From the UHGV virus genome UHGV-0239440: 25,919 bases of DNA, one strand, 5' to 3'. A program made the position numbers and the translations under genes. Below, piece after piece: positions 9,938 through 10,011 of this stretch. The notes beneath the pieces are model-generated. The model made no database searches and had not been told where the DNA came from. It was given only the letters and a program-made list of their open reading frames with translations. Source of the stretch: a virus. Numbering within the stretch: the stretch's first letter is position 1; each line of letters begins with the position of its first letter.

Positions 9938-10011
9938 TTTCTCCGGTAAAGAAAAGGCGAAGGTTCGATTCCTTCACTCGGCAGATGTCGAGTTGGTGTA
10001 ATGGTAGCACT
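9938..10011 (+). ncRNA. circularly permuted tRNA-like element: tRNA positions 27-73 (anticodon arm, T-arm, 3-prime acceptor) followed by positions 1-26 (5-prime acceptor, D-arm)
   Basis: 9938-9954 anticodon arm TTTCT-CCGGTAA-AGAAA (anticodon GGT, C at position 33); 9959-9975 T-arm GAAGG-TTCGATT-CCTTC; 9976-9982 ACTCGGC; 3-nt linker GAT; 9987-9993 GTCGAGT pairs 7/7 (one G-U) with ACTCGGC; 9996-10010 D-arm GTGT-AATGGTA-GCAC. Confidence 0.5.

Follow-up and report, generated by a model that had tools for sequence, protein, structure and literature searches.

The stretch of DNA analysed here, 25,919 nucleotides (nt) of the virus genome UHGV-0239440 (the window), carries an island of 26 transfer RNA (tRNA) genes, all of which ARAGORN placed on the + strand between positions 9003 and 14731. 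In the 456-nt gap between tRNA-Asp and tRNA-Lys of this island lies a 74-nt element, at 9938-10011, in which the arms of a tRNA stand in circularly permuted order. From its anatomy, its pattern of conservation, the modelled Ro60 fold of a protein encoded nearby and the recurrent linkage of similar RNAs to homologous protein genes, we consider it probable that the element is the tRNA-shaped head of a ∼138-nt YrlA-type Y RNA (9900-10037), the partner of which would be a divergent DUF2828-type Ro60-like protein. A direct reading of the sequence confirmed every part that a first-pass annotation had listed within the 74 nt:

9938-9954, + strand: V hairpin (earlier called the anticodon arm), a 5-bp stem of TTTCT (9938-9942) and AGAAA (9950-9954) with the loop CCGGTAA (9943-9949)
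9955-9958, + strand: variable-loop sequence AGGC
9959-9975, + strand: T-arm, GAAGG (9959-9963), TTCGATT (9964-9970) and CCTTC (9971-9975), invariant in all relatives
9976-9993, + strand: closed acceptor-like helix (AS), ACTCGGC (9976-9982) with GTCGAGT (9987-9993), seven pairs including one G-U, RNA loop AGAU
9983-9986, + strand: A (9983) followed by GAT (9984-9986), between the AS strands
9994-9995, + strand: TG between AS and D-arm
9996-10010, + strand: D-arm, GTGT (9996-9999), AATGGTA (10000-10006) and GCAC (10007-10010), stem invariant, one variable loop position
10011, + strand: T after the D-arm

The annotation had also held that this is not simply a missed tRNA gene and that no complementary half lies on either side, and both points were borne out. 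ARAGORN made no tRNA call on 9938-10011 in its native order, and the Rfam tRNA model fell short of its cut-off of 29, scoring 24.7 bits and covering just the 3' part (9919-9983); an ordinary missed tRNA was rejected on these grounds. No complementary half was found upstream or downstream of the element. When 9987-10011 was placed before 9938-9983, ARAGORN returned a 74-nt tRNA-Thr(GGT) cloverleaf. A generic scan of the window, outside the ARAGORN tRNAs, for a T-arm followed by a D-arm together with the closing helix and motif described below had a single match, on the + strand, and left the - strand empty; applied to the non-gene strands of ∼1 Mb from related loci, it gave nine T-D pairs and no complete unit. 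The 131-nt 'tRNA-Thr_GGT' annotated in REP5 (374-504 of locus L001, about 9853-9983 of the window) was rejected as a tool artefact: its 5' acceptor strand GCCAATT makes five of seven pairs.

The Asp-to-Lys spacer matched 252 records of FelixO1-like phages (Felixounavirus, Ounavirinae) at 80–99% identity, and over 250 phage records, from four genera, retain the element at 75–99% identity. Across the spacer alignment (Felixounavirus, Mooglevirus with Moogle, HP1 and Sf13, Suspvirus, and relatives) the T-arm and the D stem are invariant, and the D loop has its single variable position. The AS helix varies in sequence and stays paired: ACTCGGC/GTCGAGT in the window is ACCCTTC/GAAGGGT in Moogle and HP1 and ACACG/CGTGT in Sf13 and EcSzw-2, always closed by a loop of 3–8 nt. 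Among ten distinct variants both sides changed in three of the seven pairs and 98.6% of cells were paired; none of 500 shuffles reached the observed covariation score, and controls with a slid partner paired at 41–53%. Because the T-arm and D-arm are invariant and the AS changes compensatory, we conclude that selection acts on the element across genera.

Conservation is lowest in the anticodon loop. Position 33 is C, unlike the universal U, which the first-pass annotation had left unflagged. The loop CCGGTAA of the window is a 6-nt CGGTAA in many of the closely related Felixounaviruses and CTGGTAA or CTATGAA (locus L022) in other genera, and in Moogle and HP1 the V position holds unrelated sequence with no anticodon hairpin. 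At the Levitt pair 15:48, which is G:C or A:U in YrlA, position 15 is A (10001); position 48 has C in the window but U or A among its close relatives, and no covariation was seen. Retention of T-arm, D-arm and AS while the anticodon arm varies is the opposite of the pattern of a decoding tRNA, and it speaks strongly against both a functional permuted tRNA-Thr gene and a decaying scar.

These data bear directly on the origin and product proposed by the first-pass annotation. A genuine permuted tRNA gene, the precursor of which is circularised or trans-joined and then re-cut to give a decoding tRNA-Thr(GGU), would account for the clean ARAGORN call on the rejoined halves and the 7-bp acceptor helix, and by ARAGORN the island has a tRNA-Thr(TGT) and no GGT isoacceptor. 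C33, the 6-nt and CTATGAA loops and the loss of the hairpin in Moogle and HP1, set against conservation of the rest, argue against it, as does the position of the element inside a conserved closing helix and a handle that it shares with three units without any tRNA part (see below). The known maturation route of permuted tRNA genes depends on the archaeal/eukaryal splicing endonuclease, the substrate of which is a bulge-helix-bulge motif; no such enzyme is known from E. coli and its phages. The permuted tRNA-like architecture stands; the route from permuted gene through circularised precursor to decoding tRNA is not supported, given the poor conservation of the anticodon loop, and we regard it as very unlikely.

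The second proposal, a non-functional scar left by two deletions in two tandem tRNA-Thr copies, predicts the permuted order as its remnant and has a counterpart in the dimeric-tRNA origin that the Wolin laboratory has proposed for YrlA (bioRxiv 10.1101/312249). As a description of the present state it is extremely unlikely and was rejected: the element is kept in more than 250 records under selection across genera, with invariant T-arm and D-arm and compensatory AS changes, and analogous units occur in phages with a partner protein only 40–50% identical. It may still describe the origin. A tandem pair of tRNA genes is the likely source of the longer RNA, since this would fit the perfect cloverleaf of the rejoined halves, in line with the Wolin proposal. 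A two-piece transfer-messenger RNA (tmRNA) deserves mention because permuted tmRNA genes likewise put the T-arm and 3' acceptor strand before the 5' acceptor strand. ARAGORN, which detects permuted tmRNA, called none, there was no Rfam tmRNA match, the downstream frame is broken by single-base indels among relatives so that no tag frame is conserved, REP5 replaces the region, and a full D-stem is present. We rejected the tmRNA and give it practically no credence.

The element does not stand alone. RNAalifold on 25 distinct relatives recovered the T-arm, AS and D-arm together with an enclosing helix, AGACCGU/ACGGUCU, and folding of 9900-10040 added an outer helix. The resulting handle consists of an outer 4-bp helix, a small asymmetric internal loop (AGA/G), an inner helix of 5–8 bp and a single-stranded UNCAGCAA. 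It occurs four times in the island (units A to D), and of these four units D alone has the tRNA-like head:

9900-10037, + strand: unit D, the whole proposed ∼138-nt Y RNA containing the element (RNAfold, RNAalifold)
9900-9903 and 10034-10037, + strand: unit D outer helix, UUAC/GUAA (RNAfold of 9900-10040)
9904-9906 and 10033, + strand: unit D internal loop, AGA/G (RNAfold)
9907-9914 and 10025-10032, + strand: unit D inner helix, AGACCGUU/AACGGUCU (RNAalifold and RNAfold)
9915-9922, + strand: unit D single-stranded motif UACAGCAA, directly 3' of the 5' strand of the inner helix, a putative protein-recognition element
9813-9892, + strand: unit C, handle only, Asp-Lys spacer; outer helix GAGC/GCUC, inner helix AGACCAA (9820-9826)/UUGGUCU (9881-9887), UACAGCAA at 9828-9835
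9336-9401, + strand: unit B, handle only, Met-Asn spacer; outer helix UUGC/GCAA, inner helix AGACCGU (9343-9349)/ACGGUCU (9390-9396), motif UGCAGCAA
9173-9246, + strand: unit A, handle only, Glu-Met spacer; weaker inner helix GACCA (9177-9181)/UGGUC (9242-9246), motif UGCAGCAA

A search of the window for AGAAGACCNNNTACAGCAA with up to three mismatches gave four matches where 0.36 were expected. The four copies of AGAAGACC-NNN-U[A/G]CAGCAA lie within 750 nt, and none of 100 shuffles reached four. The outer helices vary between units yet stay complementary (UUGC/GCAA, GAGC/GCUC, UUAC/GUAA). All four units are also present in Bas63, Sf13, EcSzw-2, HP1 and Moogle, and unit C keeps its position there; unit A has the full inner helix AGACCAA/UUGGUCU in Bas63 and HP1, and in Moogle a one-sided C-to-U change in the inner helix of unit D keeps a G-U pair. 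Four units also occur in Yersinia phage P778, where the inner helices show compensatory changes (GGACUGU/ACAGUCC, GGAUUC/GAAUCC and GGACUC/GAGUCC), and one of the four includes a V-like hairpin and T-arm. The motif UACAGCAA is invariant in Ounavirinae, and its core U.C.GCA is invariant in 18 units from the distant phages treated below, aligned by MAFFT in an alignment that is ragged at the 3' end. Minimum free energy z-scores of single units were unremarkable (-0.6 to -2.5), so the case rests on comparative evidence and not on folding energy.

Two observations concern the setting of these units. In Bas63 (3122-3396 of locus L117) two tiny minus-strand 'hypothetical proteins', bas63_0137 and bas63_0138, overlie units C and D, and this annotation looks wrong. 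By eye only, a short helix resembling an anticodon stem can be drawn between AUCU (9933-9936) and AGAU (10014-10017), with AUUUA/UAAAU in Moogle.

The proposed protein partner is encoded upstream of the island on the same strand:

7422-8837, + strand: gene for a 471-aa Ro60-like protein, the proposed RNA partner; Pfam DUF2828 and DUF7788, PHROG 850 'RNA-binding protein'

The stop codon of this open reading frame (ORF) lies 166 nt before the first tRNA gene and 1063 nt before the start of unit D. An AlphaFold2 model of the protein, built from a 42-sequence alignment, had a predicted local distance difference test score (pLDDT) of 89 and a predicted template modelling score (pTM) of 0.89. In a Foldseek search of the PDB the 11 best matches were all Ro60/TROVE proteins aligned at full length (E 4e-8 to 3e-6, template modelling scores up to 0.64); among them are Xenopus and human Ro60, Deinococcus Rsr and the Ro60 of Thermus phage phiLo (phiRo60), which was the best structural match. 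Later matches cover the von Willebrand factor A (vWA) domain only. Neither phmmer nor a family profile search with this protein found a Ro60 among PDB sequences, so that sequence-level homology to Ro60 was dropped and the likeness is placed at the level of fold. The protein family has more than 2,800 database matches, and DUF2828 proteins have been reported from plants and mimivirus-like sequences. The Bas63 ortholog by synteny is bas63_0130 (gp130), which counters the Ppl defence; it has been called Ro60-like with the remark that "some tRNA genes are possibly Y RNAs", none being identified (PMC11482910; 2024 preprint). A DUF5681 gene lies directly upstream of the Ro60-like gene in the window (6969-7340) and in Yersinia phage P778 (9558-9917 of locus L034), and the two may form a conserved gene pair.

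We then looked for similar RNAs beside distant homologs of this gene, using 75 IMG/VR loci with a protein 39–48% identical and four loci from exact look-ups of three further homologs. A covariance model built from the window's clade alone (R1) gave 59 matches, all on the gene strand. About two thirds of them coincide with one or more tRNA calls, and 14 in this group are clear tandem-tRNA junctions. Among 49 matches checked, 15 are free of any such overlap; the two highest-scoring of these reach 47 bits (E 2e-9) and 37.6 bits (E 6e-7), and seven lie 41–129 nt from the gene. These non-tRNA matches are T-AS-D modules with the same closing helix and the (U)UNCAGCAA motif. A scan for the features of a complete unit, relaxed after a strict version had missed cases found by R1 and controlled on the opposite strand, gave 24 complete tRNA-like units on the gene strand, in 15 of 79 loci, vs. 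none on the other. One match of a DNA-pattern scan (locus L013) was rejected as an ordinary tandem tRNA pair. At locus L035, where the protein is 51% identical, two tRNA-like units match Rfam YrlA: one scores 40.9 bits across the entire model, the other 25.8 bits.

The complete units keep to the neighbourhood of the protein gene: 57% lie within 700 nt of it vs. 9% of 283 tRNAs (Fisher p 3.5e-7), and tRNA genes are present in the fetched DNA of 31 of 78 loci, leaving 47 without any. From this difference and the few loci with tRNA we conclude that the RNAs track the protein gene and not the tRNAs. Handle units within 700 nt of the gene were found on the gene strand in 52 of 78 loci and on the other strand in eight (73 vs. 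eight units). Units with the handle only are typically 55–60 nt long and start ∼30 nt past the stop codon, and their helix sequences differ almost everywhere while complementarity is kept. Since the helices at distant loci were found by a complementarity search, weight is placed on the strand asymmetry and on orthologous and paralogous comparisons, not on pair counts. The Ro60-like protein family is habitually found at the edge of tRNA islands: all 283 tRNA genes near the distant Ro60-like genes are on the strand of that gene, and 21 of the 78 loci (L033-L116) have at least five tRNAs.

The last observation also suits a reading in which the units are elements of the tRNA operon, independent of the Ro60-like protein and serving as processing or punctuation signals or as decoys for host tRNA-targeting nucleases. 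Every unit in the window lies between tRNA genes on their strand, and a tRNA mimic would be a plausible decoy. The concentration of units near the protein gene (57% vs. 9% of tRNAs) speaks against this, as do the loci that lack tRNA genes (47 of 78) set beside those with a handle unit next to the protein gene (52 of 78), often ∼30 nt past its stop. We consider the operon reading quite unlikely.

Several points weigh against a Y RNA with a Ro60-like partner. The protein is not a TROVE protein by sequence, Pfam giving DUF2828 and DUF7788 only. The 5' motif of YrlA, GNCGAAN0-1G, a proposed contact of Ro60, is missing from the handle, which has UACAGCAA instead; the lone match to GNCGAAG in unit D, GGCGAAG at 9956-9962, falls where V meets T, and relatives have GGTGAAG or GGAGAAG there. 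The Rfam YrlA model RF02553 gave no match on 9895-10045 (151 nt) at E ≤ 10, and no YrlA match on relatives reaches the gathering score of 69. In a control, the genuine YrlA that adjoins the Ro gene in mycobacteriophage Bxz1 scored just 32.5 bits, which indicates that RF02553 is narrow and that the missing match in the window weighs little; the best match of R1 in 7 kb of Bxz1 was the core of this same YrlA. Complete tRNA-like units were found in only 14–15 of 78 distant loci by the scans, and the background of the handle scan is sizeable, since 107 units in all fell on the strand opposite the gene. Alternatively, the handle might serve tRNA operons as a signal for RNA processing. Transcription, processing and protein binding of the units are extrapolated from Ro60/Y RNA systems, and a literature search found no relevant Felixounavirus transcriptome paper.

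By analogy with those systems, units A to D would be cut out of the transcript of the tRNA island, and the handle would bind the ring of the Ro60-like protein as Y RNA stems bind Ro60. The head of unit D may fold into the tRNA L-shape and dock a tRNA-recognising partner, which might be one of the host's tRNA enzymes or nucleases, or a defence factor that targets tRNA. Docking could tether or gate the Ro60-like protein, with a possible tie to the role of gp130 against the Ppl defence. Unit D itself would decode no codons.

The acceptor-like helix allows a variant of this scheme. In M. smegmatis, YrlA is cleaved by RNase P and receives CCA, and a 7-bp AS was linked to the cleavage (Chen et al., PMC4201824). 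Unit D has such a 7-bp helix, and in some relatives the AS loop starts with a discriminator base and CCA: GCCA in Moogle and HP1 (L003/L002), at 68-92 of L067 and at 8580-8602 of L078, and ACCA and CCCA at 8860-8884 and 11544-11565 of L115. On account of the 7-bp helix and these N-CCA loops, RNase P cleavage as in M. smegmatis is possible by analogy. Cleavage within the AS loop, followed by trimming or CCA tailing, would turn the Y RNA into a nicked two-piece tRNA-like molecule; this sub-variant does not exclude the Y RNA reading. The tRNA genes of the island encode CCA, which is in its favour, whereas the window loop, AGAU, has no CCA and other units have UUA or GUAA. The N-CCA could reflect RNase P cleavage and a free CCA end, or could be a mere trace of the tandem-tRNA origin. 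We hold the cleaved form to be unlikely, the least so among the alternatives considered.

A Y RNA at this place would explain an odd, complete but permuted tRNA without a new pathway of tRNA maturation in phages. What is new here are the coordinates of candidate RNA partners for the Ro60-like protein in FelixO1-type phages, which fall where annotation is missing or consists of spurious minus-strand ORFs; the RNA half of this protein-RNA pairing had previously not been pinpointed in these phages. The results suggest that small RNAs, recognisable by a simple signature that can be searched for, usually go with a large phage protein family known by its DUF numbers. This would extend the range over which Ro60/Y RNA systems are known and would make their role in phage-host conflict testable, including the mechanism of the reported anti-defence gene gp130.

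Some further features of the island were noted. A long hairpin at 10042-10176 fills the rest of the spacer before tRNA-Lys, with CUUUGCAGUA (10042-10051) pairing with UUACUGCAAAG (10166-10176). Inside it lies a mini-hairpin (10138-10158), CAGACC-CUUUAGCAA-GGUCUG, which resembles a collapsed handle. In REP5 the interior of the long hairpin is replaced and the stem is compensated (GCAG to GUAG, CUGC to CUAC). The spacer between tRNA-Asn and tRNA-Tyr contains an orphan T-arm-like hairpin at 9520-9536 (UAAGG-UGCAAGU-CCUUA) with neither handle motif nor D-arm; this spacer is 11 nt long in REP5. An ORF for an HNH endonuclease (10362-10844; PHROG 2255, E 3e-34) fills the spacer between tRNA-Met and tRNA-Ile and is probably a mobile homing-endonuclease insertion, because the same spacer measures 1–2 nt in Bas63 and REP5.

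We compared unit D and its companions with known systems. Soma and colleagues reportedly described, in 2007, circularly permuted tRNA genes in Cyanidioschyzon merolae and other algae. The products of algal permuted tRNA genes are tRNAs that decode and have conserved anticodon loops; splicing endonuclease and ligase make the circular intermediates on the way to them. As in these genes, the 3' half of the element in the window precedes the 5' half, and the two form a cloverleaf when rejoined; unlike them, its anticodon loop is not conserved and it forms an internal domain of a longer RNA.

The closest likeness in the order of parts is to YrlA (RF02553), known from Salmonella, Mycobacterium and mycobacteriophages with Ro60/Rsr as partner. 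YrlA looks like a circularly permuted tRNA the acceptor stem of which is closed (Wang et al., bioRxiv 10.1101/312249), and YrlA RNAs have been reported in 22 bacteriophages (PMC4201824), so it is incorrect that nothing of this kind was known in phages; the first-pass annotation had been aware of no permuted tRNA gene in a phage. In YrlA the V, T, AS and D parts lie between the strands of the Ro60-binding stem, T and D are near-invariant, AS is variable and V is less conserved; the gene lies at most 4 kb from that of Ro60 on the same strand and has companion Y RNAs without a tRNA domain (PMC4201824). Unit D has the same order V-T-AS-D within a terminal stem, and the same grading of conservation, with AS variable but paired. 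Its terminal stem is likewise made by pairing of the 5' and 3' ends, as inner and outer helices, with compensatory changes in P778 and between paralogous units. It too stands near the gene of a Ro60-fold protein, on its strand, with smaller RNAs lacking the tRNA domain alongside, as YrlB is beside YrlA. The two differ in that the window partner is a DUF2828/DUF7788 protein, Ro60-like by fold only, that four units are scattered in a tRNA island, and that the window copy keeps a full anticodon-like hairpin and scores as a tRNA when rejoined. With M. smegmatis YrlA it shares the 7-bp helix and, in some relatives, N-CCA at the start of the AS loop, from which the window loop AGAU differs.

Thermus phage phiLo also combines a phage Ro60-fold protein, phiRo60, with Y-like RNAs, Yrl1 and Yrl2, beside its gene (PMC12135203; PDB 9KOP, 9L5Y). 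As far as the accessible part of that report describes them, these RNAs have a stem-bulge-stem with a CGAA motif and no tRNA-like domain, in contrast to unit D.

The minimal handle-only units resemble the Class I RNAs of Dictyostelium (RF01414). These RNAs are 42–65 nt long, with a short stem of their 5' and 3' termini and an 11-nt motif beside its 5' strand; they are abundant, of undefined mechanism and reported only in dictyostelids, and their known direct binder is Rnp1A, an RNA recognition motif (RRM) protein (PMC7919456). In Class I RNAs (CC)UUACAGCAA, and in the minimal phage units (C)UUACAGCAA, follows directly on the 5' strand of the terminal stem; the remainder of the Class I RNAs is variable. 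The Rfam consensus of the Class I motif is CCUUACAGCAA, and 9–11 of 11 bases match (window GUUUACAGCAA; locus L047 CCUUACAGCAA). RF01414 was the top of 4227 Rfam families on the minimal unit at 8410-8467 of L047 (17.9 bits, E 0.27, full-length model; below the cut-off of 41.5), its E values across phage units ranged from 0.27 to 5, and it was the sole Rfam family besides tRNA to align across whole units. On units C (9821-9888) and D (9908-10033) of the window it scored 15.3 and 14.7 bits, not significant against the same cut-off, and in 57 kb of distant loci it gave no match at E ≤ 1. That DUF2828-type Ro60-like proteins and RNAs of the type 'stem + UACAGCAA' form one ancient ribonucleoprotein (RNP) family, from phages to eukaryotes and including the Class I RNAs, is a speculative and rather unlikely extension of these motif matches. 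If true, the Class I RNAs would gain a candidate partner and a mechanism, and the handle motif is a specific lead toward these unexplained RNAs.

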